Under the pieces are notes generated by a model, which saw nothing but the letters and a program-made list of their open reading frames with translations, did not search any database and was not told the DNA's origin. A DNA stretch of 64,000 nt from Candidatus Omnitrophota bacterium (lineage in GTDB: Bacteria > Omnitrophota > Gorgyraeia > Gygaellales > Profunditerraquicolaceae), in NCBI GenBank assembly GCA_016208765.1, contig JACQXK010000038.1, positions 14,955 through 78,954 of the forward strand, given 5' to 3'. Each line of letters opens with the position of its first letter. Positions within the stretch are counted from its first letter, which is position 1. Positions 24,001 to 47,797 of this stretch are shown piece after piece. The position numbers were made by a program, and so were the translations under genes.

Positions 24001-26769
24001 AGGAATAACCATAGCTCCATAGCGCACTTCTTTAAAACGAAGATAATCTTTGCCCTGCTCGGTAACTAAATCTCCGACTTCAACTTCTTTCTTAACACCT
24101 GTCTGCCCATATTTATAAAAAGTAACGGTAGCCTTCTGGTTCTGCTTGGCAACACCGTTTCTTTTCCACTCACTACCTTGATAAGAATACGGAGTTCCAA
24201 CAGCAAGCTCGGTTAACCTCTGAGTACCGTCATTTGCCGAGACCAAATCCGCAAATACCATTGCACTTGCAGAACAACCGGCAGCAGGAGTTACTTTATC
24301 TTTACCAACGATAACTGCAGGATTCGCGCCTTTAACTGTATACTCAGCGCCATTCCAATTAAATTTTTCTCCTAAAATACGCGAATTAGAAAAATACGGA
24401 TTTAAATTTGCACCTTGGCCGGTAAGGCCCAAAATAATATTCCCAGTTGCCCGCATAGTGTAGCGGTCAAGAGTATGATTATTAAAAACAGACTGCACGC
24501 CATAAGCCGTGCTTGATTCGCTTCCTGTAGCAGGCTTAGGAGTTATCGTCGGCAGTGTTCCGGCGTTAATTCCCACTGCATCCACATAGCCATTTTTATC
24601 AGCGTAATAACCAATAACTCTTCCAACAGTATCCCAATCTTTTTTGTCGGCGACTCCGGAATAAGCAACTCCAGCGCCGCTTAGCGCTTTATCTAAAGCT
24701 ACCTTATTCGGCAAGCCAAACTCATTATGTCCAATATCCCATTTTGCACCAGATAACGGCGAATAAAAAGACTGCCAATAAGTTCTGTCGGCAATAGTCT
24801 GCGCGCCTTGGCCATTAAAACGCAAATCCGTCCGGCCCCCGCTATTTTCCATATTTAAACCCATCACCTGCCATGGCAAAGTGCCTCCGTCCCTAATCGG
24901 CTCAGGAAGAAAGTTTACCACCCTTTTATATTCCGGCACGGAATTTCCTTCGGGCGAATAAAATATAATCTCAGGTAAAATTTCTACTCTTTGTCCTGGC
25001 TTAAAACCAATTTGATTGAATCCCGGATTCCAACCAGCACGATTACAATAAAGAGTAAAGCCCGTGTCTCTACCATATTCATCAAGTACTCCCGAAACTT
25101 TAACCAACCCACTCTCCACAGAAAATCCATCATATTCTGAAAGCCTTACACGCGTCGGCGCAGTTACAGGCACATCACGCGGAGCGCTATCTCTATCTAA
25201 CGCATTTACTCCAGACGGATTCATTACCGCATTAGCCATAGTCCACAATGGAACAATTACCGACATCTTCCCATCTCTACCCTTATCAAAAGACTGCTCA
25301 TTTAAACTCACCCTAAAATCCAGTTCACTTCTCTGCTTGCTGATCCATACGTAACCAGTATCCTTGGCAGACCTGCTGCGGAAAGCGCTCTCAGCATGCG
25401 CCACTTGCCCATTAGCCTTTGTTTCAAAACCTTCAAATTTACCTTCCATAGGAGTGGCAAAAAACTGTCCAGTCTGCCCTTTTGCCGCCGGAACAATAGT
25501 CTTATTATTAAAACGCGCTTCCACTAATCTACTGTTGCTGTCAAAACGCTCCTGAATAGCCACAGGCTTTGCAGCAGCGGTGGTATCGCTAATAAATCCG
25601 TAAGTCGCCCTCCACTCAGCGGTCTTTGCCGGATTTGTAGAAGCCTGCGCAAAACCATAGGTGCTGCGCACGGTGTTTGCCGGCCTCTGATTAGGATCAT
25701 AAAAAGTAACGCTCATAGACATTGGCGAGCTGACTTGGCGGGTAATATTGACATTTGCATTGTTAGACCTGGCATCGTAGGCAACAAAACCTGAATTATA
25801 ATTATTTGTCGCCGGACTGCTATAACCTTGATAAGAATTGCTGAATATCTCATCTCTCTCACGCAGCCAATCTCCGGCCCCTCTTATTTCCTTAGCCTCT
25901 TTTTCAGATAAAATTATATCCGTGCCTTGCGGCTGGGCAATTAAAGCATAGCCGCTAAATTTTTCTGCGAATTTTTCGGTCGGCAGAAATTCTTCTTTAT
26001 GCTCGTCACTATAATAGATCTTATCCGGGGTAATCCGGGTTACTAAAACGAAATGGTCTTTTTTAAAATGCGCAATGAATGGCGCTGCATTTGCTGCATT
26101 AGCCGAATTGGTTGAACTAAAATCTAACTTAACCGGATAAAGCTTGTCCCCAAAAAATTCTGCTGATTTTGAAAGGGCAAATAAAGAATTCTTAATTTCA
26201 GTTGGATTTCCTTCAGGCTTAACAATGTCATTTAAAATATCAAAGGTTAAAGCCATAACCGCCACATCCTGCTCCTGAGCGCTTATTCCTTTGTAAACTA
26301 AATAATCAAATAATGCCTTTGCGCCGCAAGGCTTGCCAATTAACCAATTGTAAATTTCTTCAATGCGGCCCTTAGATAATTTTAATGGCTTGGCTAATTC
26401 AATACTCTGTGTGGGAGAAATCTTAATGCTTGTAACCGGCTTACCTGAAAGGTCAATAAGGACATTTTTAACTGCTGTGGGGACATTCAAATCTTGAGGA
26501 TTCCTGACAATTGAGGCAGGGCCCATATTAACTGAAGGAGCATAAGGTTTGTTCCAGAGTACACGCCAATCATATTCAATGGCGTGGGCAACCTGCTCCG
26601 GTAGAAAAACCGCTACCAGGATAAAAGCAACAACTCTGATCCAGCCTTTGAAATTTGAATGAAATGGTGTTTGTTCGGTTTGGATTGTAGGATTTGTAGA
26701 TTGTTCAGATGAGATTACAGTTTGTGGGACAGGCCTGCGCAATACTATATAAAAAATAATTGAGAGCAT
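1..26769 (-). CDS. Giant multidomain membrane-anchored/secreted protein A, partial (>8,900 codons in window; 3' end beyond window position 1)
   Basis: I translated minus frame 0 by hand at 1-60, 3900-3960, 6361-6480, 9400-9780, 12750-12780, 15018-15060, 17281-17340, 25920-26400 and 26581-26769. All are open and in the same frame. The ORF track shows no stop-delimited minus-strand ORF in this frame, consistent with an ORF running off the window edge. ATG at 26769 is preceded by AAGGGGAGG (SD) 4 nt upstream. N-terminus MLSIIFYIVLRRP...GWIRVVAFILVAVFLPEQVAHA is a signal anchor. Plus-strand ORFs here are antisense shadows. Confidence 0.8.
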   Translation of the reverse strand, partial: MLSIIFYIVLRRPVPQTVISSEQSTNPTIQTEQTPFHSNFKGWIRVVAFILVAVFLPEQVAHAIEYDWRVLWNKPYAPSVNMGPASIVRNPQDLNVPTAVKNVLIDLSGKPVTSIKISPTQSIELAKPLKLSKGRIEEIYNWLIGKPCGAKALFDYLVYKGISAQEQDVAVMALTFDILNDIVKPEGNPTEIKNSLFALSKSAEFFGDKLYPVKLDFSSTNSANAANAAPFIAHFKKDHFVLVTRITPDKIYYSDEHKEEFLPTEKFAEKFSGYALIAQPQGTDIILSEKEAKEIRGAGDWLRERDEIFSNSYQGYSSPATNNYNSGFVAYDARSNNANVNITRQVSSPMSMSVTFYDPNQRPANTVRSTYGFAQASTNPAKTAEWRATYGFISDTTAAAKPVAIQERFDSNSRLVEARFNNKTIVPAAKGQTGQFFATPMEGKFEGFETKANGQVAHAESAFRSRSAKDTGYVWISKQRSELDFRVSLNEQSFDKGRDGKMSVIVPLWTMANAVMNPSGVNALDRDSAPRDVPVTAPTRVRLSEYDGFSVESGLVKVSGVLDEYGRDTGFTLYCNRAGWNPGFNQIGFKPGQRVEILPEIIFYSPEGNSVPEYKRVVNFLPEPIRDGGTLPWQVMGLNMENSGGRTDLRFNGQGAQTIADRTYWQSFYSPLSGAKWDIGHNEFGLPNKVALDKALSGAGVAYSGVADKKDWDTVGRVIGYYADKNGYVDAVGINAGTLPTITPKPATGSESSTAYGVQSVFNNHTLDRYTMRATGNIILGLTGQGANLNPYFSNSRILGEKFNWNGAEYTVKGANPAVIVGKDKVTPAAGCSASAMVFADLVSANDGTQRLTELAVGTPYSYQGSEWKRNGVAKQNQKATVTFYKYGQTGVKKEVEVGDLVTEQGKDYLRFKEVRYGAMVIPEEIKFDEKDSAQNKQADIKTLPITSWSTKEINPKSDTERYHSKGASGGLQRAAIFEVNSANLGTNINFSPMFENTRHAIGSDIREFVSGEQGRTGTIIAAARKDGGSLKGQTFTLNENGFVKDRGFQSGWRGINASGNYYVDLTDRNNVALRHVTLKGVSFWVEDGGKKWLDFKVRSLTMPGGSVQDLVAGVNAAGKPYLQFGGDNELVLAQTPQPELRKDESGNDNNKVSYSHRELTLSKRSGVLRSSGVQIADISVSQLNSASMNLSGDFRNSTLHSTFSGDASLTVQLSRNNDSLAKGGLAFVRAGDKAVFNADGTLETKLGGYWQPLDGKIKGIDTSARFMTEPGKWRAVTGVEGDGTKQVSVTLANGKQAWFGERSQGQETNASPQDKESSATATARHAQTMHLGVDGNLSGVSSNYIAGLSYNFGGSISQDLRNYTVVNQGYKGDKNLVRQFRDKDAVSYAAADGGLTFTGTKGEQVSFDAKGQIKGGHAGYWQPLDGKKYTALFTDVYEKRALGEFAKRVSWDAAGNIKGIDTSARFMTEPGKWRAVTGVEGDGTKQVSVTLANGKQALYAQTTGGQQETGVGEDKVEKPVAANRGLNTLSLGVDGKVSGASSNFLTRLNYNFSGSISQDLRNYEIVSNGFKGNLKYQAILDKDGKVVGSNDLVFDGSSKVSFDSNGQISSGAISQGGAVFKVRDGQLVMPEFEQGAFDPLAALGALGKEQNLDQWLRNFIKANRGRPIPKEEGADRLVMLTLKWLDTNGAKASWQDLDGVLRGLKKTEEDKVAFIKAFILLNTALTKELKDPSTGKVNCVAATTLFYQLAELTGLKGRVTSGIIDGLEEPHVAGLFRNKDGKLIPVDLTHRETTVDSKGRIVDVRELITRPEAYDGLPGNKGTVRIVVYKDGKLLHLTTSEFNAANGKSLSGFHVMQMYYTEMAKRTVDPVTRSAYLAKAEQFGPTNIFPDLACMLVSRYLAAGGVDNKARAIQYANIANKFNIQLGAGLTSIMNIVVKAQAAGDLDKVIVTQDGNQLSISYQEGKTRKKTEVGAPLLTDYMPYGLEVLPGTGLRQVKTPQGEMAYMFNGARVYVKGETEIDGVRYLCLSGAQYSNKLFYVSLANASGTQLSEDVAFASGEKGRWVRSLNRGVFEQYIQIGDTRYTLQPWLQQLGFAYDCYRSADGKMKWLERKTRKEANSGTLLASTEALSVQTRGKVLREMLSNNPRAAENMVALFNTTDSWRGQMAFWRSDSERSRKLLVINPQTGIMEYISFSDIDVSSGEVRVFNNYALRTSYAQAQRVFMGAFAERALKHGYIPIAVVDDAVTTRSAAIYGGAAAAYVAGTVLSATGVGAPTGVSLIMIAGAAAYSIAGAEILKYGLTGETLTWSERVTAGVLGAAPAALGKAAQFARASASVVSGAGVGAGAMDFTEAAVNVVQASRLARVAGVATQIIAASGRTLESGATFAYASYALGNAGSIASSGRPLTFGEGAVSLASGYIPSAVGQLRGVGALGKGMSYLIGAQKASRAAHIGYSLGWAGAGGLINSAVNGWSGRNFLEGAAVGFVARNIAYLSYVSSARLFGLGLNEAEKSATFQWIWKTPLRGNLIYSAGWSAAGAGIYPFFTKEGHTWSNALKGAGLGLVARWGGVALLKPSFATGNIFLKVSEKTNEISKLRLFGNGAVRLLTHPLTVSTALAKYDLAGVKYDLDANGRVVAESVKGGNLDFLGPVLRGVLVNSGRNFIGVFSGQRSYSKTNAVIDQLKMQERKQVTDYLRDVQQNSSFGWMRAAVGAYLYSFADTFAQAASGSYSISAAAHPLDTLHGLISFADHAKQMLIDQTGEVPTATGAEWGMFLGGLIGATKGYKTMATRISESEYFNIPKGLLKGQTYKLIGTDTGLRITNYKFTQRLGAVFVKTHSDAANLVVWNTVFSTFVGNAMSGGQFSLEDVSRQVTAMAYSMDTVAKGAFGLSAVFNSLGLVSGELGKTRAGKFWNSLGEKEAKYNSRRGWAIGTSVGMIVGGYGLYRWGMSNSPKDKPSESWNYVADAGLVLAGIGGLLMMKSLSGVLSSRAFVARKERLPGTTESALERSLLGRTEAKYFGTVANGLEGWKALGHSVAYYAPYISLGVASGIYANYKLTGELFGDGWKTDVIAGAAFGVGLRNVFPILRLAGQAGLLAGNLASGAALFYGTKKMVDGKLEEWAWKLDPQKRKPDFAEATRPYLFEEQKVFMIEEDEYGQKKLDTTKEKVLVERDGKKLEVYPYKYKEAGKLNHWRYALFLGANMLGATKIGLIARETYIKGPLEPQIGFGRGAAKGIRENVINGGEKMWDWVFSSRRKGGVPPGEGHASSAVGGVNAGATTFWKSVSSPQFVIPVATALTGLATYGFSGTKYGENIGKAMMILPALYFVSKVGKFKLSDIHLFGVEHPIISSTLMIGAGYGLEHWGAVEGTFGLKGATIGENGADLGLIVGRIGTGMKWLGTVNLVASVASRIPGLRDSFLDKTSRQVAGLSLAGTKGIAWDFALRGTMINLFTVIAPLQGVVESLSAFTKTYISPAAYGDWEKSLLNFTYGAFWITPEESKQGKGPASRDKYAVLLGAFDKAGSFESKLRVAGRIAERAYFAGLFGSYAEGDNIQDNKKKIGDIKVDSFDQAPKTLSGFFKKVDRTNLIFSATLAGLQPFAESAFGAIKWRNFGYKFQAIGKGVEETLGAGMLLKSSPRESSLGAGKIIGQRLYSMVVTGTVEETVTEQFIQAALNFLPFGAFLSPSKASQLSEILQEILSPNGMAGRVNVFSRGQAIDYLKKKIYNAENAKNVLNKRLTEGSNARGSENRLRNGRPIALTTEMVQTRQAALNDMITQYRAALNNVRGLALFTSTPEEVSAAMRPSLQRKAEILIARGQAAVDERWGVGMWQAAMRGKRGRVNLMPANSIRNEETNAVTPAQVDKETGDFRLDAAMNFNYKVSSGGRLSVTTNVVGEYNVGGGAHELHHSVIDYVQHDTRRIIDNNTRLQYEGFLNQFQNRLGLDNEEFQRVDLGITEWGLNEALVQYYSMVDLLHFLDQDKNLHLAKFCPGSYNIQDLIQRTINQGGNSLLSLSERMLEMENTGEAMDYIIDFVQCTNGNKIKFVTPTAQTNGQQPEEDDDTSSPIIMNLKRKPVYGLPPEVESAKDKKIIASSSVLAALSDSKENASSDVPLSATDKVGIPEAQKVVSAAIEASRGRSPPEQAITVPVVTPVVIPSVTPASAQRATFSSVGRMKSYLAKLFIPLALAVIIFGGVKLSPVTGTLANNVSGATPKAVSRVVQVSRPSNFILNDENQQIERVVKASPAVVKATQFTKQKDNAPLVPLIRSLQEVKDSSLINLLKRAAFFVQPPENNQAVDKKIIVSSAVLTALTGKKEVVLSAPIATPVVTSIVAAYVSPRNIINQSSSAINSNDLRKGLRWTAAGLSLTSVGVLGSMFAIDHAPSIEILSYVQGGLLTTVAGLGTAVRTIDLVSGNNSSKGAWLSQLAITLGTPLDVFFGGAVSQVGNAMQIAGASYSVVKEKGLARWANVIGIGFDAFDIVQGHTLERPAKSGIDSGGVISETVDEMISRDAVGKIKFNPVKFLIPVVVAALISGGVKFGLVTGALADNVKSASPKAVSEVVKVGNPSNLVVRGENNHIVRTIKVDHAVVKAVPVAVDIQKKASASSAIVSSPTAQATRFTLNKRTQSVTYPGRLGLVHQDVVGYLQSAGKAPEQHLTIVDLGIGHSGAPTVFEFARVLSDAGYRNVDLIGVDNTVKHLVSARDRLEREEVPVGIRMDFGINDNFLLFPDVRSFAGRGIRALRDGVDLILTANVLGHYWEPEQQKTAIWAMTQALKPEGALVVAGGNKFEVKLINKFLYSYGIDYYSKAGELLSARRFEKINPLYSSRASELEYKQHFSFRDPAVRRTYFAGEFSSKPVASLAWQTLAQQSRQPVVVDVSASSVLVENEEVKAIASLAQAMVAAKRQGNAAASPVVVENGQRFIELAPEHRTEIAKFAAIKEQLVEARANIGKAMAEGASVDKIRELAGVLDSVSNEVMKWINEAIAKKDADPVLAIIGLSFKTSGDNYGREGGRQFSAFDSYSAAFGLQSYVELFNGSSENEKKEVLEMIFESASDLEGRMSLDLSLFNNNNPKLPLRIVAFTDGYLAREVIDVDAVLDQASSPVQSPAENQLPANLPVAPARVPVPTSIGAVVGGLGTFAEMLGSSPALPLVIKPATEGLVVSSSAIMSTVAGTQLFGQAGGVNVATGISPMSGRGNRQAGRKLGALVGSSAVGAIVGARGAAESRSNETGLPVAANVGAVARTVGKSRGSSSAIIGLRREDDKLPLIGESASSSIHTRNQILVEKYGARGPPADYPLNQTVSSAIPVNYGAVVRIGSSSVSLSSIYQLLKYYLKEIISAFISNEPHFTPSVAGMVDEAIVVYAGRQKASLQGLTSFGACVTTKTTASSGLSSIFVADFSLSGILWTLTCVSFSAAAFYGFIRKNMRFAALSSSIVIFNFAFNFANLNWFFHNWFYNFLDVSVYMGFALGLVELSRYIKENNSELENGLAAKPITQISVIGANIAAAVFFSLLSAQEILTKYESTRNFIHAFYWKNLTYDPYDILAYAAGTLLLVLYNRWTAEPKESMGKRDVGLQGLLRNQKPVRRNRSRSTSSPITNLTKPYSIPSVAGTIVKAIVVYAGRQKASLQGLTSFGACVTTKSASNAVTKILNYSVAVEPQSNLTTYFKLTGGAKCVDLTIQKLILTTWWNSLKTQLSLPRVETTVICGFSLLTTARVMSIAVMAGQIPGKYSQIMTVIWSLNDSSLPAAARSRSTRSTQKGRSNRVAGHVSPVTSHLSPVSGKAASSALNNDLGAVARTEGSSSAVIDLSDTLFKESDGVVELFNVFVDEFEEVVKLARETGAKITKKFLNELFERMFDARFINATKKQRNNLRNQAIEAVTAGHASSALTNNVGAVVVASSSVDEVTRELPVSEESKEMIKVFLSEFTVTLDKFKDALSKYKKNNKKGLTALEQLIIGFSKSIEGGRKRTKTDAQDIFGMLCQTITKISEYDLNAAMFVINGALYRLKKVSEPEKRKEAFAWIESEIGKMEFVLASINAGANFVKAHRDNNELLIDIKGTFLLNLETLRGRNLRKAEEVVREFMKDYIMVITRDQNVDPEQTTFRERGILFIEMFTKRFADNEAFIIDLMKKAVTASSAVGAVVAINTTQASSAVVEMGWSELFRAFFKTLNHFMGNSIGPIVGNIKLMQDPAYASYLASPDVIKSEIIDGCQSMLKFIEEVLSMEQPSVAEIASNLDPDPVLFVESIKNITGAPASVKLTDNTWDEIKKEILLPRLNFLKNQVKYILNFVDTIDGDNEARNTVGTAGETMRYAVAEFENKYRDMVEIPGLVLTSIFSAHMLLKEYSGSYGISGERDIKIVEDSVLFKILLDIGYERSYIHAVLAKRGLKVFFAHERDFGKKESNGDHPIGAVVYRYDENNNNIVVFCFGVINSRRNEYLSPILLLKFLSLILVDWKQEKEIAKYHGTDFNPTVSIVVDPRIGDGAFFKAFNFSKNGNVFSKPFDAIVKSSSPVGALMVTKTGTSSPVGAVVGAIASQEAAKSSSALFNNFGAGKYLSDVANKGLIRAGPVGSLVTICSSSSVRNLVVKTVKIASVATIIILFGLLVNIKGFLPLLPVVLSAASFGLLYASFTARKNIRLNPQTQITPAAALKKAMPAALYVAAGTLLIIGGLKITPLIISAGLLAKLLPSVVIMLGISMLLTASFLTKHGVEYSGVKFLKLAFGMLLTRLIALRLAHQAVHTQKTLGERHSFRDLFSIRHFTLKTRAAYIGLSLAVVLTSGIASVKLIIIAAVLGYTMPYLWNVLRNFFFDRALYNAERTGLIFKHHDNQLEAAQTEFINNLEKKLAAEYANLSWPAKAVLHIAFFFVRLNVAFPVLSATTMFFFGRLQLILLSSLLGHIFAPVILGDAVINSLPAVYGIKFLEPYLSALHLSYHTGDIFGTLAIVFGLKVINLGHIRNRIIEFWLGRSINVMSYYQALNSDKEQVREKAKADLEYIISRGAMGNSLFEKVVMNGLGKKVARISSRQWLYLKADIVALAVILAVVTPIVLMLKFPVLLPLGLLGLGLYVAQSIRKKAFFADPYKNLWVSLSGEFFSSMLYMWTIGAEINAVIASGGFLAEHPVLKHFGGTELDIIGRSLEGENGAISWGSHALNSVNQFVGADLTEFAYSLVSGNKEPGIFATAYNFYPLYQNGQILKNKDGHILPGGLNLDDFHALYVGRKPLSKELDRNETAKLLESFKGRFNFDRIFSHSRRANIIRVIDRVYRVRINSADDLRRLLRSANLDEIISGFGMVGKDSKNLLNIRHAFSVRAVKAQEGISERARRLMLMSVEYKFKALAQADDVQKERFMILARIVDLDLQDEVLRENNSAKEKSEDNQLSRRIALLELEINNEKGAVKLEGLRKQKHALELFLAQRKVYRLERATTEEFMAELSAQGFGGVSGQEAEMFRETALQQAYDELAELKDKKPAVPVTEPANSIDIRDQIRQQEEQGTKAQDRQIVAAPKAPAQVVINKGVKVPGQVPVETTMSRAPPAKQANNTFGQKAKAVVLASALFLNSLGATEAFAAAVPAAVPAPAPVARRPDPVAVPRQAPAAPADIIYTIKSGDTVSKIAIRYGIKWQDLYDYNKGVIGANPNRIFPERQIKIPVSARTAAPAQTAQPQPADQAVKSGPTTGAKASPEPAVTPKPKPAPYKPLDYSGIRDLGSVPQALAALGRRIPRELDLTKKADDLLIPLQTISTDLEALKARVHLLKSPKSWDKKYNGFWDYIKAFRAFEAAKEQVLEQIRGLETTIARKASYIRVEKGEFELKKKTAKYEKYLKISRYDAQRKAFLELMPVSFADDPAEFGKTYLYDFAVLIDALTFAGENKKAAELLRLFTRFFGDGKNGFYNAYILSDLRHIENKSAGPLAHMIIALCNYERTSGDGTYRHVAENIARFMQKNLLTSANGMTMFRFTNNKEDYLDLYNVVSTEHQISSYAAFNQLYALTGDVDYKLVRNSLQDYLTAAYITQEGYFKVGYRIDTNTWDTDYANDLNSWAILAGIAGPAQEQMLDFVEGQVIKVDYRKQGEKIKVEGLPFGRARLDQKQVVTFEWTSFAALAAAKTGRVKLSRRLLDSQNRAAVNGMLEYATEPDVSTYFGWSTSRGRALVSSLWNLLAQSGANIFDPHCSGAKINAGNLDSMLKNFSFSEETYRLKQAEYAVFDMVRSLYGAQSWVKEIQERLAMTEKEREDLINLAPIIKIGPGGLFNSLFSFNFGSFPLFGDDCNLGIGLQLGGKYGAIPSLLNNVYGLSKNGISIIGTLAAADAIIDLYSAPKMEKLEERGGIMYLDGREFNAGILSAAWPKALLNMRYDPKTGRVIKGSEEETVTPVKVDFPWEKVTNVISRLLHLKSPFERKDYKAIVFLGTQQLLAYRQAFFNKNADDVYFAIRQGKYQYIVKHNLSSREYEIISETLMFEEETRKFLQDVGWYMHDGEAIVLPSILRLNYARNYVNSIQEGKFGAEVNPVTGEVYEVRREQDIPPVVYDAKGLPLDPYAGNVKMPSLNLALIRWAMEMGETGKQKFAVLFDGDNVDIRTGDQGLQVKVAGKEFKFKSGRREIVFSAGTRYVEIDGEKVLVIAEKEINVPIAIVYSTSPRIPTQFIYDKKELVNIEIVGEPEEIRFDNGLKIELTTGTALRWYYDEKASPLGAGIIEFAKDQDYLSNEAVVENDFSRLATQPFGVKEGEMLPVLEGDKPFEDAARRDPNAKADHLTRLTNMYWDEVFKLMQMRRELRGFSDIYQAIAADAVTEDRLRFYSDLVDGLEFWRRQIEIEMGGKRTVSLADLDQNLDKTMVDLQKEIDDRNSWRPALLAQIATYQSEVNQYKALRTQAEQAHNQFLVNYYTGIIDQYETILIPDVYKQLSQLEVENNVKM
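3820..3960 (-). other. LysM domain in giant protein A, flanked by Pro/Ala-rich linkers
   Basis: Verified translation APAAPADIIYTIKSGDTVSKIAIRYGIKWQDLYDYNKGVIGANPNRIFPERQIKIP. Canonical LysM pattern YxVkxGDTlxxIAxxYgv...L...N.l....i.pGq.l.iP. Confidence 0.75.
5400..6480 (-). other. Polytopic membrane segment (8 or more predicted hydrophobic helices) embedded in giant protein A
   Basis: Translation of 6361-6480 verified (AAYIGLSLAVVLTSGIASVKLIIIAAVL). The adjacent stretch continues with several about 20-aa hydrophobic runs (approximate read). Confidence 0.4.
9403..9451. repeat. Heptanucleotide array (GGAGACA GGAGACA GGTGACT GGTGACT GGTGACA CGTGACC GGCGACA) inside gene A
   Basis: Seven imperfect 7-nt units. 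Verified to encode ...VAGHVSPVTSHLSPVSGK in frame. Confidence 0.85.
9826..9930. repeat. Internal direct repeat copy 1 in gene A (80-nt perfect identity with 10596-10675)
   Basis: ttagttgtcacgcaggcgccgaaggaggtcagtccttggagggaggccttctggcggcctgcgtaaacaacaatagcct is identical at both sites. It contains an imperfect internal palindrome (gcaggcgccgaagg...ccttctggcggcctgc). In frame; encodes VVYAGRQKASLQGLTSFGACVTTK. Confidence 0.9.
10596..10700. repeat. Internal direct repeat copy 2 in gene A
   Basis: See copy 1 at 9826-9930; 770 nt apart. Confidence 0.9.
12400..12900 (-). other. Class I SAM-dependent methyltransferase-like motif set within giant protein A
   Basis: Verified translation PEQHLTIVDLGIGHSGAPT (motif I hh(D/E)hGxGxG), followed by DLIGVD (post-I acidic), VDLILTANVLGHY (motif II) and KPEGALVVAG (motif III). 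Confidence 0.45.
15031..15045 (-). other. HExxH zinc-metallopeptidase-type motif (GGGAHELHHSVIDY) in giant protein A
   Basis: Verified codon by codon. The motif alone is not proof of a peptidase. Confidence 0.35.
22277..22398. repeat. 122-nt perfect direct repeat copy 1 in gene A (tandem ~200-aa domain repeats)
   Basis: gcctgttttccattagctaaggtcacgcttacctgcttagtgccatctcc...cctttaat is identical at 22877-22998. The surrounding about 600-nt units (21900-23100) are diverged copies of the same unit; copy 2 lacks an about 85-nt segment. Confidence 0.9.
22877..22998. repeat. 122-nt perfect direct repeat copy 2 in gene A
   Basis: See 22277-22398. Confidence 0.9.
25920..26340 (-). other. Peptidase C39-like (papain-fold Cys/His) domain within giant protein A
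   Basis: Hand-translated: IGKPCGAKALFDYLVYKGISAQEQDVAVMALTFDIL...NAAPFIAHFKKDHFVLVTRITPDKIYYSDEHKEEFLPTEKFAEKFSGYALIA. The Cys, His and Asp/Glu spacing and the HFVL...D..E..F..W/F.G motif match the C39 bacteriocin-processing peptidase pattern. Confidence 0.5.
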
Positions 26770-26885
26770 GCGCCTCCCCTTACCCCAAATTTCTTTAATC
26801 ATCGCGTTTATCTTCGCGCTCGTCATAATTTAATTAAAGAGAATTAAAATCTGTTTGTGAAACTGTTTAATAAGCAATTAAATAA

Positions 26886-27070
26886 AAAACCGGATTGTCA
26901 AAACCTTGTCTCGGTTCGGCAACCCGGCCATCCTTTGATAATACTCAATTTATCTTTTAGGACCCGTGGCTTTGCGCCCCCCGATTACTCGTCCCGTTCA
27001 ATAATCTTTCTAACGGGATCCCGCTTTTTTTGCGGGAGGGTTTGCCCTTCTCGTTCCAACCTCTAATTGC
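26886..27070 (-). promoter_or_regulatory. Conserved 5' leader L1 of giant gene A (structured RNA candidate ending in hairpin + U-tract)
   Basis: Homologous to 35088-35296 and partly to 45303-45489. Shared blocks: GCGGGAGGGTTT, CCCGTGGCTTTG(C/T)GCCCC, CGG(C/T)AACCCGGC, a hairpin, then AAAAATAAAA(A)CCG (U-tract on the sense strand). Confidence 0.5.
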
Positions 27071-27076
27071 ATATTA

Positions 27077-27105
27077 AGTATATATGATGCTTACAAGTGT
27101 GTCAA
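27077..27105 (-). promoter_or_regulatory. Sigma70-like promoter of giant gene A (TTGACA, 17 nt spacer, TATACT)
   Basis: Sense strand reads TTGACAcacttgtaagcatcataTATACT. An AT-rich UP-like region lies upstream. Confidence 0.5.
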
Positions 27106-27212
27106 GTATATTTTTAGTACTTTTTGAAAGTGTTTTCTTTCTACTCTTTTCTGCGGTTACCGCCCTATTTGCAAAGGGTTTAGTTGCTGATTAATTTTTG
27201 TTTCCTCTTTGT

Positions 27213-27279
27213 TGTCATTCCCGCGGACACGGGCATCCAGGCATTTAAACGGTTGGATTCCCGCTTTCGCGGGAATGAC
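27213..27279. repeat. Palindromic intergenic repeat, GTCATTCCCGCG...CGCGGGAATGAC family, copy A
   Basis: gtcattcccgcggacacgggcatccaggcatttaaacggttggattcccgctttcgcgggaatgac. The outer 12-nt arms are inverted repeats, and the inner gggcatccagg/ctggattccc arms are also inverted. ORF-track ORFs here (WIPAFAGMT / VIPAKAGIQ) are translation artefacts of the repeat. Confidence 0.85.
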
Positions 27280-27327
27280 AAACCTCCCCTACGATTTTCG
27301 TAGAGAGGTGTCCAATACTTCTCTATT

Positions 27328-27417
27328 GTCATGCCCGCGGACTCCAGCGGCCTTGCCGCTAGGCAGGCGGGCATCCAGGCGTTCCAATAGCTGGATTCCC
27401 GCTTTCGCGGGAATGAC
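27328..27417. repeat. Palindromic intergenic repeat copy B (with extra inner hairpin insertion)
   Basis: gtcatgcccgcggactccagcggccttgccgctaggcaggcgggcatccaggcgttccaatagctggattcccgctttcgcgggaatgac. Confidence 0.85.
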
Positions 27418-27423
27418 GAGCAT

Positions 27424-27460
27424 GACGTCATCCTGAACGAGCCACGCGAGTGAAGGATCC
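27424..27460. repeat. S-element short repeat (GACGTCATCCTGAACGAGC...GAAGGATCC), copy 1
   Basis: Related copies at 35532-35567 and, in reverse orientation, 47798-47823. Confidence 0.7.
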
Positions 27461-27469
27461 AATAAGCTC

Positions 27470-27536
27470 AGATTGGACAATTATATTGGACTTTATTTCA
27501 CTTTGGACATTTTACAGGCATTTAATAATGTCCAAA
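27470..27536. promoter_or_regulatory. Cluster of TTGGACA(T) motif sites just downstream of the gene B stop, including the inverted pair TTTGGACAT(17 nt)ATGTCCAAA
   Basis: cagattggacaa (27470-27480), attggac (27485-27491), tttggacattt (27503-27513), aatgtccaaa (27527-27536). Confidence 0.6.
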
Positions 27537-27545
27537 CTGAAACCT

Positions 27546-30500
27546 TTAAAATTCTTCACGGGTTTCTCCTGAAGTTGAGAAAGTAACAGACTTATTTGTT
27601 TCAGTTGAGCTGCTTAAATCAGGATCATTGGATGGCTTTGCTTTAATATAATCCCACCTATAACCAACAGTGTCATCTCCCATTAAAGGCTTAACAAAAG
27701 CCTGCGGCATACCGTTAGCATTCCATGCCGGAGGCAGCATAATTGAAGCACGGCCTTCATAGGCAGCTCCAAGAGTAAGATCCTCAGGATTATCCTGCAC
27801 CAAAGTAATACCATTGCCCATATCCACCAGTTGGATCTTAAGTAATCCATCTCGTGCCTCTTCCAAGCTGATAATAGATTGTGCGGGATCCTGCCAGCGG
27901 CCCAATTCTTCACTAAGTTTCTTTATTTCTTCCTGCACTTCCTTTAATTTCTTTTCAGCTTCTTTTTTCTGCTGGCTATCATCACTCATCGCTTCCAAAC
28001 CTTTATTAATATTTTCTTCTTGTAGAACTAACTCTTCAACACTGCTTTTCTTATCCCTCAGATAATTTATGTCTTGAGTATAAATATTATATGCTGTGCG
28101 AATATTTGCCTCAATAGAATCTCTATTGTACGCTCCGTTACGGGGCAGGGTAAATGCCGGCGCCAACTGCAGATTATTTTCTGCCCGATAACCGGAAGTA
28201 ACGCCCCATTGCAATAACGGCGCATTTTCTTCGGTATTAAAACGGGTATACTTATAAACACCCGACTGCCAAACCACATTTGCCGGAGCGCTAAGCTGCC
28301 CTATCTGTTTCACATATTCAGTCCTCTCAAATAATTCTCCCGAGGTATGCTTATCTGCCTTGGCTCTTTCAGCATTGAACCTGTCAAACACAACGCGCTT
28401 TGTAAGCGGCAGATCTTTCTGCTCTTGGGCATCATCACCTTGGATAGCCTCAAACTGTTTAAAGTCAAATACAACACTCTGCGCAATTTGCCATATCTGG
28501 TCGGTTAAGCTGCTTGGAATTGCTGAATCAAATTGAGGTTTATTGCCACCGGCGTAAGCCGCATTCAATGCCTCTTCAAACATACGCTTCCCCTTGTCTC
28601 TTAAAAATGCTGCTTCTCTGCCTGTGTTTAAATACATATAAGGCTGCAGTGCCGGGCCTGAGCGGGTTTCAGAAAGGCGCCATGAGTAAGACGGATTTCC
28701 ATAAGGGCTGTGCCCTTGGCCGATAGAATAGAAGTTATAATTGTAGTCTGTATTTGCCCCGACGGAAACTGGAGCGTAGCCAGATGGCTGTATTTCAACT
28801 GTAGGAACAACTTCCGGCTTCTTAGGCTCCGGATCCCTCATCATTACCTCAAGGCTGCGCGGCAACCATATCACGCTGGCAGCAAGCATGTTAGCAACAT
28901 GGTGGCGAGGAGCTTTGTCTGGATCATAATCCTGGATAACCGCAGTTGTTGCAGCATCTCTTTTCATATTATTGCTCGGATAATCTGAATTGGATTGCAT
29001 ATTCCAATCTTCTAAGACAGTTGCCCAGCCAACAAATTTAACGGTAAATCTTTCTTTGTCTTTAGCAGACATTTCATTCCAAGCATCATGATTATTGGCA
29101 ATATACCACAAAAGCATTGTATTATGCGAAGTTGGCTTGTCGCTCTTAAACCCGCGTCCAACCCTTCCTTGTTTTTTATACCAACGCCTCACAATGCCAT
29201 CAAGTTCTTTCACCAAATCCGGATTATCAGCAAACAATTTCTCTGCATCCCGGTAAGAAACTTTCACCACTTCCACATCTTTGTTTTCAACTGCAGCTAT
29301 AAGCCTTTTTGTGGCCACAGCTTTAGCGGCCCTTTGCACCGGATCATCCCTGCTAAACAGCTGTTCCGTCGCTGTAGGCAGTTTTGGAAAACGAATAACT
29401 ACCCGAGCCTCAACAGGAACAGGGCTCTGCCCTTGAGGAGCAGCTGCTTGATCTTGCTTGCCAACTACGCTTTGCTCTTGCACATACTCCGGAGGAGTAA
29501 TCGCGGTGTAATCCGTTGTCCTGGTCAATGCAGAACCAAACGGGCCGTAATAATATTCGGTTGTCTTGGGCAATTGCACCAAATTCCAATTACCATTGGC
29601 AAAATCCTGGCCATCCTCACTAACAAAATCCTGCCCGAAATATTCTGTGCTTCTTGCCCTGCCCCATAAATCAACTCTGGTGCGCGATAAAAGGCTGGTA
29701 ACCGGCGAGAAAAATACCGGCCGCGCAGAAGAAAATTTGCGGATAATTTCTTTTTTATCTTCAAGTGACAAAGCCAATAATTTTTCTTTTTCGGCATTAA
29801 ATTCCTGCACTGCTTTTTCATCCTGAGCATCAGGCAATTGCATACGTTTTACAAATTTATCAAACTGCTCTTGCATAAACTGATCCTGAGTAACAAGGTC
29901 ACTCTTTTGAGCCTTAAGCATATCTTGTGTCAACGCCTGCATTACCGGCTGGGCGATAACAGAACGCCCATAGGTCAACTGATCCAGAGGCAATCCGCCG
30001 GCAACTGACAAAGAATAAGTGCTGTTTACTACTCCGTCGCCAATATTAGGTAAAGATAAATATTTACCCAAAATACCTCTTTCCTGCGGCTTAAGCATTG
30101 TTGAACTGCTGGCGCTAAAATGCCGCATAAATAATGCTTCATTAGTATTTAGGGATGCGTCCATACCTGCGGCCTCATCTCTGCGCTGGTAATGATAAAT
30201 ACCGCCGATTTGCCCATGGCCAAGGCTTGAATCATACACGGAATATTCCATTTGCCTTGCCTCTGCCATCTGCCTTGCCACAGGCAGAGCTTGCTGCATC
30301 CAATTATCTTCACCTTCTCCGCCTTTCTTGCTAAAGAAATAAACCGACTTATCTCTAAGCGCCCAACCTTGAGTAATTTCTGCAGTAGTAACAGGAGCAG
30401 AATCAGGTAACTTAGCGCTATACACAGGTGTTAACCCTTGTGCCGCAACCACCCACTGGAATATTTCCTGGCGCGGAATTGATAAATCTTGAAGTTGTCT

Positions 30501-33500
30501 ATTTATTTCTGGTAAAGGCGCTTTTATTGCATCCATTTCATCTCTCAATCCATTAATGCGTGTCTCCTGGATACTAACAAAATCCTTAACCTTACCTTCA
30601 AAAACACTGATTTCTTCTGCACCAAGCGCATCACGATTCATAGATTGTCCAGCAAGCTTATTAATATTTTCTACTTGCTCTTCTTCCCCAGCAAAAACAC
30701 CAAACTGAGCATTTGTGGCAACCACAAGCGAAATTGTATTAACATCCGGATTTAAACCTTGCTCTTTTGCCTTCTGCAAATCTTGATATGCTGCGTAAAT
30801 CGGATCTGCTTCCAGCTCTTTTTTCTTTTTCTCTTTTTTATTCACTTGCTCTGCAATTTCAGTTTTCTTTACTTCTAAGCCAACTATTTGCTCAGCTGTA
30901 TCAGGCTTATATCTCTTCGCAGTATCAATAAATCTTTCTGCCTGCTCTCTTAAGGCCTTTCTTCTTTGCGTTTCCTCTTTTACTAACTCGCTTGTAGGCT
31001 TAAAACTTGCGTAGGTGCGGGAAGAGCGAGGCAATATTGGATTTGTAAAAACAGCAGAAACAGATGAAGCCAGCCTTGAATTTGCCTGCTGGCTCAATGA
31101 TTCAAGCATTAATGCCCTATTAGCTTGTAACGGGCTGTAACCCTTTGCCCGCATTTTCATATATTCAATAAAACGATCCTGCTCATTAAATCTTGCCTGC
31201 AAACCATTCATTCCGTTAATCGGCGTCCTTAAATTAACCGGGAACAATGTGGCATTAACCGTTGACAGGAATAAATTATCCCCTATATTTTCCAAGGTAG
31301 CAGGAATAAACCTGCCCAACACATCACGCATGCTGAAATTAATTCTTCCTTTGCTGATTGGATCCTCGCCCAGAGAAGGCATTCTCCTGGTTTCTCCGGA
31401 GTAATCAAACCCAGCTATATTTAATCCATAAACAGTCCTGGTAATTTCGCGTGTGCGCACGCGGAAATCCTCCGGAGCAAGCTCTACTTCTTTTCTTTCT
31501 TTGGAAGATAAAACAATTATACCGGTTTCTTTCTTACCAACAACAACACCTTTCTCATTTACTACATCCATTATCTTACGGGTATCTTGTGCTACCGAAT
31601 ACACCGTAGTAGTATCTGCATCCAATTCAAATTCTCCGGTGGATTCACTTCTTGCTGTCCCGCCTTGCGCTCTTATCTGGCTGACTGAAGCATAATGCAC
31701 ATCGCCAGTGGCAGACTTTAAAGAAATAAGCGGATCAGCGGTATTTTCTGTCCAAAATTTAGTCCCGTTAATCTCATATCCGGGGAGAGTAATCATTTTT
31801 AATGGAGAACGCTGAGACGGGCCGGCAAAAATAAATTCACCTTCTCCTAAAATATTATACACATCAACTATCTCAGTTTTCTGAACCGATTTGTTAAATT
31901 CTTCTCCGCTCATCTCTAAAATATTGCCATCGGTAGAGATAAAAGTGTGTTCCGGAGAAGCATTGCCTTCTTGGTCAGTAGCTCTAATATAAGTCCGTCC
32001 ATCTCCGGCAAACCGATAGTATTCTACGCTCCGTCTTGGACCCGACTGGGCAATCGCAGCCCACTGCTCTGAAGAAACTTCTTTATTTTGTCCATCACCT
32101 AATGAATGCAAAATAACACCAGCTGGCTTAGCCTGCTGGCTAAATTTCTCCGGCGTCATAAAAGTCCTCTGGCCACCTGGAGTTGATGCTCCCAAAAGCA
32201 CTCCAGTAACTGTACTCACGCCCTTTAATGCCTGTCCACTGCCATATTGGACAACATTTGCGGATAAATCTTCCAACGACACTGAGATCTTCTTTTTAGT
32301 CGTTCCTTCGCTTTCCAATTCAACACTATTGCTATCCTGGCTATAGCCAACAATATGATAATATTGTATCTCACCTGAACCAGAACTAAGGCCTACTCGC
32401 ATAGGAGCATTATTTGATGCTGAAGTTTCTGATGATTTCTGCTGCAAACTTACCGCCAACTCTCTGCCGAAGTCATTTTGAAATTCATCCATTGTCTTAA
32501 GTTTTTCACTGCCGGCAACTATGATCGGCTGTTGATCACTTTTTTTCTCGTCTTTGTTTTCTTCCGGTTTATTCGCCACAAAATCAACAACCATTATATT
32601 TCCAGTAGCTATTACTTGGCTGATATTACCATCTCTGACATAAACCTGAATATCTGTTTTCTTTGCTCCTTGCTTTTCTTTTACCTCATCCAATGTTTCA
32701 GAAGAAAAATCTATATACTGGCCATCGGGGGCATGAGCCCTTGTTATATCTTTTGCCGGTGCGCGCAAGACCAAAGCATCAACCACTGAACCAGCCACTA
32801 CACCACTGGCAAGATGTAATAATTCCTGCAATGCCTGCGGTTGGCGAATTTCATTCACCCGGCAATACTGCCCCCAGGCAATTTGCAAGCCGGCATCCAC
32901 AGCATTATCAATTAGCGACTTTGCTATATATTTAGAAAGAGATAAACTTCCTCTTGTTCGCCAATAATTATCCTGGACTTTATTACCTGTTTTATCATCT
33001 GTCCAAGTCGTTCCGGAATACCATGTGTTTAAAACATCTATATTAGAAAACACACCGCTAGAAAAACCGGCAATTGCTCCAGCACCTACGCGCTTAACCA
33101 AATTATCAAAAATCTTATCATCATCGTCGCCGTAATGAGTCTTATACCCCATTGCTGATAAGACTGCAAGCTTAACCCCCAAATTAACAAAGGGTGCCAG
33201 CCCCATATTCTGCACCGCCTTAAAAGACTGATTCAATATGCCAAAATCACTCATTGTGTTTCCTTGCACATCAGTCATCAATCCACCGGTTGCATTTAAC
33301 AAAGCAGCTGTGTTAACATGCGCTTGTGTTAATAAATTCAACGTACTCAGTTGTGCCTGAGCAAGCTCTCTTCCTGAAACCTGGAGCAAAACATTTTCCT
33401 TTTCACCTGTTGGAATAATAAGAATTACTTTTTCGGCAGATTGTAAAATACCAGCGAGCGCTTTATTTTGCGCAACATCAGAAAGGGCGATACTCCCAGC

Positions 33501-35045: not shown

Positions 35046-35087
35046 ATTTTTAAGTGGCAAATACTTTTTGAAACTGTTTAGGATTTA

Positions 35088-35296
35088 AGCAAAAATAAAA
35101 CCGAGCTGCCTTTATTCAAACTCGGCAACCCGGCTACCCAAAAAATGATTCCAAATAAACTCGGTAAACTACATTTCTCCGAGGGGCCCGTGGCTTTGTG
35201 CCCCCTGATTACTCATCCCGCTCAATAATCTTTTTAACGGGATCCCGCTTTGCGGGAGGGTTTACTCTTATCGAACTGACCTTTATTATTTACTAC
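35088..35296 (-). promoter_or_regulatory. Conserved 5' leader L2 of giant gene B (paralog of L1) ending in hairpin CCGAG...CTCGG + UUUUAUUUUU, 45 nt before the ATG
   Basis: About 85-90% identical to L1 over the core cccgtggctttgtgccccctgattactcatcccgctcaataatctttttaacgggatcccgctttgcgggagggttt. Confidence 0.5.
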
Positions 35297-35302
35297 AATG
35301 CA

Positions 35303-35332
35303 AGTATAGCATTCATATATATATATTTCAAG
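35303..35332 (-). promoter_or_regulatory. Sigma70-like promoter of giant gene B (TTGAAA, 17 nt spacer, TATACT)
   Basis: Sense strand reads TTGAAAtatatatatatgaatgcTATACT. Confidence 0.5.
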
Positions 35333-35419
35333 GGTGTTTTTAACTCTTTTTGAAAACGCTTTCTTATGCATTAAGATTCTTCAGCCCCTTCGCGGTGAGG
35401 CATTCAACACTTTTCTATT

Positions 35420-35509
35420 GTCATGCCCGCGGACGCCAGCGACCTTGCCGCTAGGCAGACGGGCATCCAGGCGTTCCAACGGCTGGATTCCCGCTTTCGC
35501 GGGAATGAC
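35420..35509. repeat. Palindromic intergenic repeat copy C
   Basis: gtcatgcccgcggacgccagcgaccttgccgctaggcagacgggcatccaggcgttccaacggctggattcccgctttcgcgggaatgac. Nearly identical to copy B. Confidence 0.85.
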
Positions 35510-35531
35510 ACGAGCGCCAAGGAAGACCAAC

Positions 35532-35567
35532 CAAATGAATACGTCATCCTAAAGGAGCGCAAGCGAC
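35532..35567. repeat. S-element copy 2
   Basis: acgtcatcctaaaggagcgcaagcgactgaaggatc. Confidence 0.6.
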
Positions 35568-35586
35568 TGAAGGATCTAAGATACCC

Positions 35587-35622
35587 AGATTGGACATTAT
35601 CACAGCTATTAATGTCCAATCT
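35587..35622. promoter_or_regulatory. Near-perfect palindrome AGATTGGACATTA(9 nt)TAATGTCCAATCT, 6 nt after the lipoprotein gene stop; operator-like and/or terminator hairpin
   Basis: 13/14-bp arms. There is no U-tract afterwards on the sense strand. Confidence 0.55.
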
Positions 35623-35628
35623 GACAGA

Positions 35629-42110: not shown

Positions 42111-42176
42111 GTCATGCCCGCGGACGCGGGCATCCAGACGTTCCAATGGCTGGATTCCCGCATTCGCGGGAATGAC
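42111..42176. repeat. Palindromic intergenic repeat copy D (between the tadE-like gene and the Cys-rich pseudopilin gene)
   Basis: gtcatgcccgcggacgcgggcatccagacgttccaatggctggattcccgcattcgcgggaatgac. Confidence 0.85.
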
Positions 42177-45302: not shown

Positions 45303-45489
45303 TAAATAAAAAACCGACGTCTCTTTTACTTTCAAAGAAACCTCGGCTTTCGGTAACCCGGCTAATGCTCTCGCTCTTGACCTTAAAGCTTAAAGCAATG
45401 AAGACAAATCTTGCGAGCGTCATCCCGTGGCTTTGCGCATCCACCCCTCCAAGAGTGGAATTGCCTTTTCGTTGCCGCCCTTCAACTAC
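45303..45489 (-). promoter_or_regulatory. Leader L3 upstream of the flp array, sharing the 3' half of the L1/L2 leader
   Basis: Sense strand: ...GCGCAAAGCCACGGG...GCCGGGTTACCGAAAGCCGAGG...GACGTCGGTTTTTTATTTAAGGAGatactaATG. aaataaaaaaccg matches L1 exactly over 13 nt. Confidence 0.45.
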
Positions 45490-45495
45490 ATCATA

Positions 45496-45524
45496 AATAT
45501 AACATGCACAAACATGGGTGTCAA
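45496..45524 (-). promoter_or_regulatory. Sigma70-like promoter of the flp array (TTGACA, 17 nt spacer, TATATT)
   Basis: Sense strand: TTGACAcccatgtttgtgcatgtTATATT. An ATGTCC half-site abuts the -35. Confidence 0.5.
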
Positions 45525-45555
45525 GGACATTTCAGCTCAAACAGGAAAGCGCTTT

Positions 45556-47379: not shown

Positions 47380-47450
47380 AGATTGGACATTTCCTCTACA
47401 ATATTACCATTTTTATGCGGCGTGTCAAGCTCTTTATAGATTGGACATTT
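47380..47450 (-). promoter_or_regulatory. Promoter of the HTH-protein gene (TTGACA, 16 nt spacer, TAATAT) flanked by two direct AGATTGGACATTT sites
   Basis: Sites at 47380-47392 and 47438-47450. -35 at 47423-47428, -10 at 47401-47406. Confidence 0.5.
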
Positions 47451-47793: not shown

Positions 47794-47797
47794 TTAG

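Follow-up and report, generated by a model that had tools for sequence, protein, structure and literature searches.

Two giant genes that lie one behind the other in the genome of a Candidatus Omnitrophota bacterium are each preceded by a non-coding region that holds what appear to be the same elements in the same order, and the question raised by this locus is how two unrelated genes came to carry matching control regions. The stretch analysed, hereafter the window, comprises 64,000 nucleotides (nt) of contig JACQXK010000038.1 (assembly GCA_016208765.1), and its minus strand carries every gene of the region. Gene A (1..26826, minus strand) is a giant open reading frame (ORF) of more than 8900 codons that leaves the window and encodes a peptidase C39-like domain near its N-terminus; its true start is uncertain, with candidate ATG codons at 26826, 26802 and 26769. 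Gene B (27546..35045, minus strand) encodes a protein of 2499 amino acids (aa) that carries a signal peptide and matches no Pfam domain. The regions upstream of the two genes are termed upA (26827-27545) and upB (35046-35628). Comparison of A with B by blastp gives no match at E<=1e-3, and the upstream neighbours are non-homologous as well, gene B itself standing before A and a 181-aa lipoprotein gene before B. The original prediction interpreted the two regions as a segmental duplication of a composite regulatory unit or, alternatively, as a mobile promoter cassette. The account favoured here, to which we assign a probability of roughly three in four, is that upA and upB share an old paralogous scaffold into which further blocks arrived later, mostly by copying between the two regions. 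The locus is a real case of a composite regulatory unit reused before an unrelated gene.

On the minus strand, which is the sense strand here, upA and upB are colinear from the preceding stop codon up to a point some 20 nt short of the B start. The shared order comprises an array of short boxes, a short dispersed repeat (S), a 90-nt palindrome (PAL-L), a promoter, a riboswitch of the cyclic di-GMP (c-di-GMP-I) class and a terminator. All elements named in the original prediction are found in both regions, in the same order and orientation, with the single adjustment that S before B occupies 35541-35576, about 9 nt from the 35532-35567 first given for it. Two blastn high-scoring segment pairs (HSPs) dominate the alignment, one pairing 27297-27484 with 35389-35600 (213 nt, 77% identity, E=5e-46) and the other pairing 26960-27053 with 35184-35273 (94 nt, 86%, E=1e-28), and weaker HSPs lie in register at 27102-27139/35328-35365 and 26854-26892/35065-35103. 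These HSPs are colinear and homology runs the whole length of the regions rather than being confined to the individual short repeats; the colinearity is far beyond chance. Identity is distributed unevenly, reaching 94% (85/90) in PAL-L, 88% in the conserved aptamer core, 87% in an insertion of 42-46 nt within the aptamer (40/42 excluding an A-run) and 86% in S, and falling to 47-76% in the promoter, linkers, P2 loop and terminator. Relative to upB, upA holds an extra 66-nt palindrome (PAL-S) and about 120 nt of further sequence.

A relative in which the same arrangement recurs places the duplication in time. A word-indexed search with the first 900 aa of B returned no match, and an exhaustive HMMER search with its last 1200 aa retrieved B itself and one orthologue with 41% identity; the candidate view of B as an orphan gene was rejected on the finding of this syntenic orthologue. 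That orthologue lies on L014 (GCA_020063045.1), a contig that keeps synteny with the window at 70-84% nucleotide identity; the succession of Tad genes, lipoprotein gene, upB, B, upA and C39 gene is common to both, which supports the order of the window pieces. Moreover, independent Logan short-read contigs of the same organism (SRR12113406: L001 and L039) agree with the window at 100% identity and stop within the palindromes, so that the window sequence is not an assembly artefact.

In a four-way alignment of the 290-nt core, extending from the GAAAGCG box to the post-terminator motif in upA and upB of the window (wA, wB) and of L014 (lA, lB), the orthologous pairs wA-lA and wB-lB are 88% and 85% identical, respectively, and all A/B pairs 64-68%. 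At 73 sites the bases follow orthology (wA=lA, wB=lB, A different from B), and at 0 sites are they concerted (wA=wB, lA=lB), on which ground gene conversion across the promoter-riboswitch core was tested and rejected. Because both regions are syntenic in L014, orthologues are closer than paralogues and the sites divide 73:0, the duplication is old. A single recent segmental duplication of the whole 600-700-nt unit, from boxes through S, palindrome and promoter to leader, would explain the common order and orientation of all modules and the 86-94% identity of PAL-L, S and the aptamer insertion, but it conflicts with the presence of both regions at the same positions in GCA_020063045.1, with paralogues more diverged than orthologues and the division of sites, with the lack of S and PAL-L in both L014 regions, and with identity that ranges from 47 to 94% along the alignment, which does not place the pair among recent duplications; we consider it very improbable. 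Tandem duplication of a gene together with its upstream region was also rejected, as blastp detects no similarity among A, B and a third giant ORF (54216-63905). The segmental duplication of the original prediction holds for the scaffold, composed of the boxes flanking the upstream gene, the GAAAGCGCT box, the promoter, the riboswitch and the terminator, whereas S and the long palindrome are later additions.

The scaffold also carries an indication of its direction of spread. Since certain lineage-specific features of wA and lA, namely TTTCAAAAAG after the box and TAAACAGTTTCA, recur in the B-type leaders, and since these leaders end before the GGGGTAAGGGG element kept by all A-type leaders, upB is a truncated copy of an A-type region that predates the split of the two species. 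An A-type control region, cut just after the terminator, was placed before B in an ancestor shared with GCA_020063045.1. The region has since been retained much better than the gene behind it: the B leader is 82% identical in nucleotides to its L014 orthologue, against about 40% aa identity in the B protein. Gene B (27546-35045) and its counterpart at L014 10001-17116 display only patchy nucleotide similarity, and the B product is an extremely fast-evolving secreted giant protein.

The blocks of highest identity have a different history from the scaffold. S and PAL-L are absent from both L014 regions; in L014 upB, neither S nor any copy of the PAL palindromes is found. Relative to L014, upB of the window contains S (about 36 nt) as one insertion and, as another, a block spanning about 134 nt (35383-35516) that holds PAL-L together with a 37-nt flank; the sequence between the two insertions is ancestral to upB. 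In L014 upA, a GTCATTGCGAG-type palindrome sits exactly at the PAL-L position, and the sequence from PAL-S onward is orthologous. The aptamer insertion lies in the first hairpin of the aptamer (A, 26992-27037, 46 nt, two hairpins; B, 35216-35257, 42 nt; both minus strand). It is present in the B-type aptamers of both species and absent from lA (68.6 bits) and every other A-type aptamer. Within the insertion wA and wB differ by 2 substitutions and wB and lB by 7, and the bases that flank it in wA are A-type. It was thus later, in the window lineage, that upA and upB came to share S, PAL-L with its flank and the aptamer insertion at 86-94% identity.

On the simplest reading, the aptamer insertion would have entered upA by a short non-reciprocal transfer from upB in the window lineage, and the palindrome block was probably copied in the opposite direction, from upA to upB, both by short-patch ectopic recombination; mechanism and direction are what we infer from the comparison of the four regions. 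PAL-L seems to have been copied as a block rather than transposed, because a homologous non-palindromic flank (25-37 nt) travels with it. In upA this flank (AATAGARAAGTRTTG...) comprises 25 nt on the 3' side of PAL-L (27303..27327, minus strand), shares 19/25 positions with upB and contains a degenerate inverted box (27309-27318); other PAL copies lack it. On the left side of the upB block, the few flanking bases (GCTCGT) have an A-type appearance. For S, independent insertion and copying are about as likely. Like ectopic gene conversion, the pattern involves direct repeats 8 kb apart with over-similar patches, and the aptamer insertion groups by genome; unlike usual conversion tracts, only the large insertions are shared, with no flanking substitutions.

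Several observations weigh against this account. The patch borders are too precise for ordinary gene conversion, the A-type markers beside the aptamer insertion being unchanged, and the 290-nt core contains no concerted substitutions, a pattern that also fits site-specific insertion of small elements. S has recently been active as a mini-insertion, with copies at the CpaF stop codon and in a 604-aa gene that are absent from the related locus L004, and the upA/upB spacer is a hot spot of repetitive extragenic palindromic (REP)-like elements in L006, L010 and L014 too. L014 upA may hold a degenerate remnant of S, in which case S is older in upA. Both window aptamers score lower than those of relatives (48 versus 61-69 bits for RF03167), owing to the insertion. 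Finally, the copy number and flanks of PAL-L are those of the 64-kb window.

These points could be accommodated if the scaffold were old and paralogous but S, PAL-L and the aptamer insertion had each come from independent insertions of REP-like elements into the same targets, with no copying between the regions. S has been inserted at least 2 times elsewhere since the split from L004, next to AGGAT-like targets; between the upA regions of the window and L014, PAL and REP2 palindromes take each other's place at exactly one point, following CTC; other repeats occupy the spacer of L006 and L010; and the same intergenic region of L009 holds a transposase resembling the REP-associated tyrosine transposases (RAYTs). 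The sharp patch borders, with neighbouring substitutions not co-converted, and the resemblance of the first hairpin of the aptamer insertion (TCCCGC-AAAG-GCGGGA) to a PAL unit (CCCGCGAAAGCGGGA) fit such insertions as well. Parallel insertion nevertheless needs the same order, the same orientation and the long PAL variant twice, and the homologous non-palindromic flank of 25-37 nt accompanies PAL-L only in these two copies; in addition, A and B carry the aptamer insertion at one and the same nucleotide position, and the nearest match of the A insertion is the B copy in its own genome. We regard independent insertion as unlikely and retain copying between upA and upB as the preferred account of how most of the blocks came to be shared.

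A further reading is a mobile promoter cassette that inserts before genes. A putative mobile promoter is defined as more than 50 nt of at least 80% identity before non-homologous genes with non-homologous upstream coding sequences (PMC3488235), and the similar promoter and riboswitch sequences before two non-homologous genes, with 94 nt at 86%, fit this operational definition; REP-like repeats with terminal inverted repeats are also part of the region. By sequence the pair (94 nt at 86%, 213 nt at 77%) is of that kind, but mobilisation finds no counterpart in the data. Only two copies are known, both syntenic in the relative, no terminal inverted or direct repeats bound the unit, and the 64 kb contain no transposase. 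Leader-specific probes are unmatched elsewhere in two large collections, no further copies being found in the GTDB species genomes with a 42-nt leader probe and a 32-nt A-leader probe or in the JGI metagenomes with the 42-nt leader probe. The 24 loci recovered with an aptamer-core probe have one copy each in a fixed place after Tad genes or similar, and the plan is vertically conserved with the C39 gene. A cassette can be given next to no weight: the search of relatives that had been recommended did find both regions in GCA_020063045.1, and the same plan before C39 giant genes, and yielded no mobile copies. Two-member families of this kind have been attributed to recombination rather than transposition, and riboswitches are counted among the families (Matus-Garcia, Nijveen, van Passel 2012, PMC3488235). 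Like those promoters, upA and upB are homologous non-coding DNA before non-homologous genes and form a two-member family; unlike them, the reuse is old and vertical, spans about 600 nt instead of 50-100 nt and bears no sign of mobility.

The scaffold itself is conserved well beyond the two species. Homologues of the A N-terminus define eight loci (L005, L006, L007, L009, L010, L011, L012 and L014), and a common plan precedes the C39 giant gene in all 8, at none of which S or PAL-L is part of it. The plan starts with 1-4 boxes of the form AA-TGTCCA(A/C)(A/T)CTG right after the upstream stop codon, followed by a variable spacer, GAAA(G/A)CG(C/T)T and, 23-24 nt further, TTGACA-N16-18-TATACT. The aptamer belongs to the c-di-GMP-I-GGC or c-di-GMP-I class (58-69 bits), and the plan closes with UUGACAAYCCGG and a U run, then CTTATTAA.AGTTT.A.AAAC and, about 100 nt further, GGGGTAAGGGG. 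At 5/8 loci the C39 giant gene follows T2SSF (TadB/TadC) genes across an intergenic region of about 630-890 nt; L014 resembles the window in having the lipoprotein gene and B between the T2SSF and C39 genes, and in L005 and L012 another large gene precedes the C39 gene. The aptamer-core probe recovers 24 more loci from the JGI metagenomes, each in single copy after Tad genes or similar, and neither S nor PAL occurs in any of them; the nine A-type loci in this set all have at least 2 boxes (9/9). The plan is conserved, its RNA element is a riboswitch of the c-di-GMP-I kind, and across the phylum this design represents the ancestral form of control for the C39-type giant gene (A).

Each leader is served by a strong sigma-70-type promoter located 20-45 nt upstream of the aptamer. 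The A promoter, TTGACA-17-TATACT (27077..27105, minus strand; 11/12), is conserved in all relatives, and the B promoter, TTGAAA-17-(TG)TATACT (35303..35331, minus strand), was located by promoter scan. Positioned 23 nt upstream of the -35 hexamers are the boxes GAAAACACT (27129..27137) before A and GAAAGCGTT (35355..35363) before B, both on the minus strand. The corresponding motif, GAAA[GA]C[GA][CT]T, is found at a fixed distance in 25/29 Omnitrophota riboswitch promoters, including that of a pilin riboswitch of the window.

The A aptamer (26915-27056, minus strand) and the B aptamer (35121..35276, minus strand) score 46.6 and 35.6 bits for RF01051, respectively, each reaching the gathering score of 35, and both leaders lie in the 5' untranslated region (UTR) between promoter and ORF with an expression platform. 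The A aptamer also resembles the GGC variant (RF03167, 48.1 bits) and falls below the gathering score of 59 because of its insertion, which produces a 54-nt loop instead of one of 8; related leaders, orthologues included, reach 61-69 bits. The GGC variant has, to our knowledge, been described only bioinformatically, and the literature on its ligand offered passing mentions only. Like RF01051 and RF03167 riboswitches, the window leaders stand in a 5' UTR behind a promoter and have a terminator that competes with the aptamer; unlike them, their aptamers carry the 42-46-nt two-hairpin insertion in the first hairpin. Between window and L014 upB, the first hairpin of the insertion exhibits a compensatory change (CCCGC/GCGGG versus CCCGU/ACGGG), which suggests selection to keep the inserted hairpin folded.

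Downstream of each aptamer, a terminator engages the aptamer's own 3' strand. The A terminator (26880..26929, minus strand; -20.7 kcal/mol) consists of a stem at 26890-26928, whose 5' arm is the aptamer 3' strand GCCGGGUUGCC, and a U run at 26880-26889. In the B terminator (35091..35134, minus strand; -19.8 kcal/mol) the 3' arm has been remodelled and still pairs with GCCGGGUUGCC. Terminators that use the aptamer strand GCCGGGYUGCC as an arm are found at 20/24 related loci. Because the terminator employs a strand required by the ligand-bound aptamer, we infer an ON switch, in which binding of the ligand to the aptamer would prevent termination and RNA polymerase would run into the giant gene. 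The remainder of the A leader (26769..26873, minus strand) is nearly identical in L014 and contains the conserved stretches TTATTAAACAGTTTCACAAAC (26853-26873) and GGGGTAAGGGGAGG (26774-26787); GGGGTAAGGGG is present in all A-type relatives, and the B leader is without this part. Throughout the phylum, GGGGTAAGGGG is kept at about 45 nt from the annotated starts, on their upstream side, and from the first ATG of A to GGGGTAAGGGGAGGCGCATG (26769-26826; L014 17808-17870) the two species are almost identical, the surrounding DNA being about 81% identical. This start-proximal stretch of A may be a leader element not recognised so far or a small upstream ORF.

The window harbours a third c-di-GMP-I riboswitch (45349-45475, minus strand, 40.2 bits), located before short genes resembling Flp pilins (45291 downwards). 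Its promoter at about 45500-45528 combines a GAAAGCGCT box with TTGACA-17-TATATT, and the arrangement is conserved in L004 (42.2 bits).

The boxes that open both regions follow the 10-nt consensus TGTCCA(A/C)(A/T)CT (TGTCCAATCT) and occur 27 times against 1.7 expected in 149 kb of window and relatives. Before A, the array (27470..27538, minus strand) begins 8 nt past the stop codon of gene B and includes boxes at 27529-27538 (inverted on the sense strand), 27500-27509, 27483-27492 (degenerate) and 27470-27479; it is orthologous to the boxes of L014 upA. Before B, a pair (35587..35622, minus strand) made of 35613-35622 (inverted on the sense strand) and 35587-35596 forms a perfect 14-nt palindrome, begins 6 nt past the stop codon of the 181-aa lipoprotein gene and is conserved in L014 upB. 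The palindrome arms extend over 27496-27511/27527-27542 for A and 35586-35599/35610-35623 for B. What the original prediction took for one element, a TTGGACA palindrome, is resolved here into two copies of the box, which in other Omnitrophota are mostly direct repeats about 30 nt apart. The most likely role of the array is that of a binding site for a DNA-binding regulator.

That the TTGGACA palindromes instead close the upstream unit, as transcription terminators or RNA hairpins, is suggested by their location 6-8 nt past stop codons and by RNA folds of -16.6 and -18.6 kcal/mol (z about -6). The stems are, however, AT-rich and no U run follows, the terminator scan is negative there, seven other Omnitrophota have boxes as direct repeats with which no hairpin is possible, and two boxes flank the promoter before the 604-aa gene, an arrangement conserved in L004. 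As intrinsic terminators the palindromes were rejected for lack of a G+C-rich stem with a U run, and we judge a terminator or RNA-hairpin role improbable. The boxes before the 604-aa gene are two direct TGTCCAATCT copies (47380-47389 and 47438-47447), 58 nt apart, that bracket a TTGACA-17-TAATAT promoter; the bracketed promoter is kept in L004 (4964, 5022), a species with 91% CpaF identity, and of all observations on the box, this pair hints most strongly at an operator.

The repeats that interrupt the scaffold behave much like REP elements, bacterial interspersed mosaic elements (BIMEs) or REP doublet-forming hairpins (REPINs). PAL-L before A (27328..27417) and before B (35420..35509), both 90 nt on the minus strand, fold at -49.8 kcal/mol (z -5.0) and -50.1 kcal/mol, respectively; the former is composed of two inverted GTCAT-KCCCGC-N3-4-GCGGGMAT units. 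PAL-S (27214..27279, minus strand, 66 nt, -39.1 kcal/mol, z -8.4) occurs before A only and is older than the split from L014, which holds a degenerate orthologue. A fourth, 66-nt copy (42111-42176) lies between two genes of the Tad cluster and is kept at the orthologous L004 site (10262-10327), so PAL copies can persist through speciation. All 4 copies in the window are intergenic; their folds range from -39 to -50 kcal/mol (z -4.6 to -8.4), and 0/200 shuffles are as stable. In 338 kb of Omnitrophota loci, PAL units are found only in the window, L004 and L014. Two inverted units that form one long hairpin are what a REPIN or REP doublet shows. PAL units appear to match the ATTCCC-N8-GGGAAT pattern of neisserial dRS3 repeats.

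Like REP/BIME and REPIN-RAYT systems (Bertels and Rainey 2011, PMC3116915; PMC3337134), PAL consists of paired inverted palindromes, is extragenic and comes in length variants; like BIMEs, it clusters with other repeat types in the same spacer, and a RAYT-like gene is found in a relative's equivalent spacer. Unlike known REPs and REPINs, it belongs to a GTCAT-TCCCGC... sequence family, the window holds no RAYT (no Y1 transposase was found within the 64 kb), and its mobility is deduced from presence and absence in relatives. Rfam at gathering thresholds gives no match for PAL, S or the boxes.

S (GATCCTTC...CAGGATGACGT) occupies 27425..27459 before A and 35541..35576 before B, both on the minus strand; the two copies are 86% identical, and the latter is an insertion relative to L014 upB. 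A role as structured RNA was rejected, as S has no stable fold. The GTCAT terminus is common to S and the GTCATTGCGAG palindrome, which are also built alike in general. A further S copy (47797-47822) overlaps the TadZ-CpaF stop codon, where the protein ends in DDVFKTSS* against DDVFKTA* in L004, which has no S there, and an S-like copy (GTCATCCTGA...GAAGGATC, 47125-47161) within the 604-aa gene is an in-frame insertion of 27 nt relative to L004.

In other Omnitrophota, the spacer between boxes and promoter holds further repeats: a tandem array of units of about 45 nt in L010 (about 5290-5620), and GTCATTGCGAG...CTCGCAATGAC palindromes in L006 (about 5500-5590) and L014 (17235-17320). The spacer is a repeat trap. 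In L009 (JGI 3300029288, 4810-5370), the boxes of the C39 giant gene are directly preceded by a gene for a Y1 transposase of 186 aa, similar to the REP-associated ones (NF047646, 63 bits, below the cut-off of 80). The inverted repeats of 21-26 nt on either side of it (AGGGACCGTTTCCCTAT) differ from those of the window.

Giant ORFs and Tad or type IV pili are hallmarks of Omnitrophota, an uncultivated phylum, and a group of giant proteins with C39 domains has been noted (PMC10066038; bioRxiv 10.64898/2026.06.07.730766); the giant ORFs are poorly conserved and of function not known, possibly in adhesion or predation (PMC10066038). In these two papers on the phylum, 'c-di-GMP' has 0 occurrences, 'riboswitch' has 0 occurrences as indexed by the literature search, and no mention of how the giant genes (ORFs over 20 kb) are regulated was found. 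A and B are separate transcription units directly after the Tad (Flp) cluster, each with its own copy of the control region, and one kind of promoter together with a riboswitch of the c-di-GMP type stands before the C39 giant gene, before the second giant gene, which evolves fast, and before the Flp pilin genes. As with usual c-di-GMP targets, the genes controlled are those of pilins and of surface or adhesin-like giant proteins. We tentatively propose, at odds somewhat short of even, that boxes, GAAAGCGCT box, promoter and a c-di-GMP-I(GGC)-type ON riboswitch define a phylum-wide regulon that switches on Tad pilins and giant surface proteins, and that paralogous control regions swap REP-derived pieces, one of which was carried into the second riboswitch's aptamer without destroying it. 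If so, c-di-GMP or a related dinucleotide would control giant proteins thought to attach to or attack host cells.

The plan, conserved across many Omnitrophota, provides a testable handle on when their giant genes are expressed, and the two new conserved DNA motifs offer a means of tracing the regulator. These by-products, riboswitch control of giant genes and pilins together with the two DNA boxes, are probably the more useful result. The locus also illustrates cleanly how an entire regulatory region can be reused for an unrelated gene, with its history later blurred by REP-like elements, and it cautions against dating the duplication of two regions by the near-identical repeats that they contain.

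The Tad (Flp) pilus cluster upstream of A and B encodes RcpC, a secretin, a TadZ-CpaF fusion, Flp-like pilins, TadE/G-like proteins, two T2SSF proteins and the 181-aa lipoprotein. Candidatus Omnitrophota is the source of all close homologues of the TadZ-CpaF fusion, which number in the hundreds. The third giant ORF (54216-63905, at least 3229 aa) has its start and upstream region beyond the end of the window and contains a TGTCCAATCT match at 63882 near its 5' end; a tRNA gene (54008-54082, minus strand) is positioned just downstream of it.

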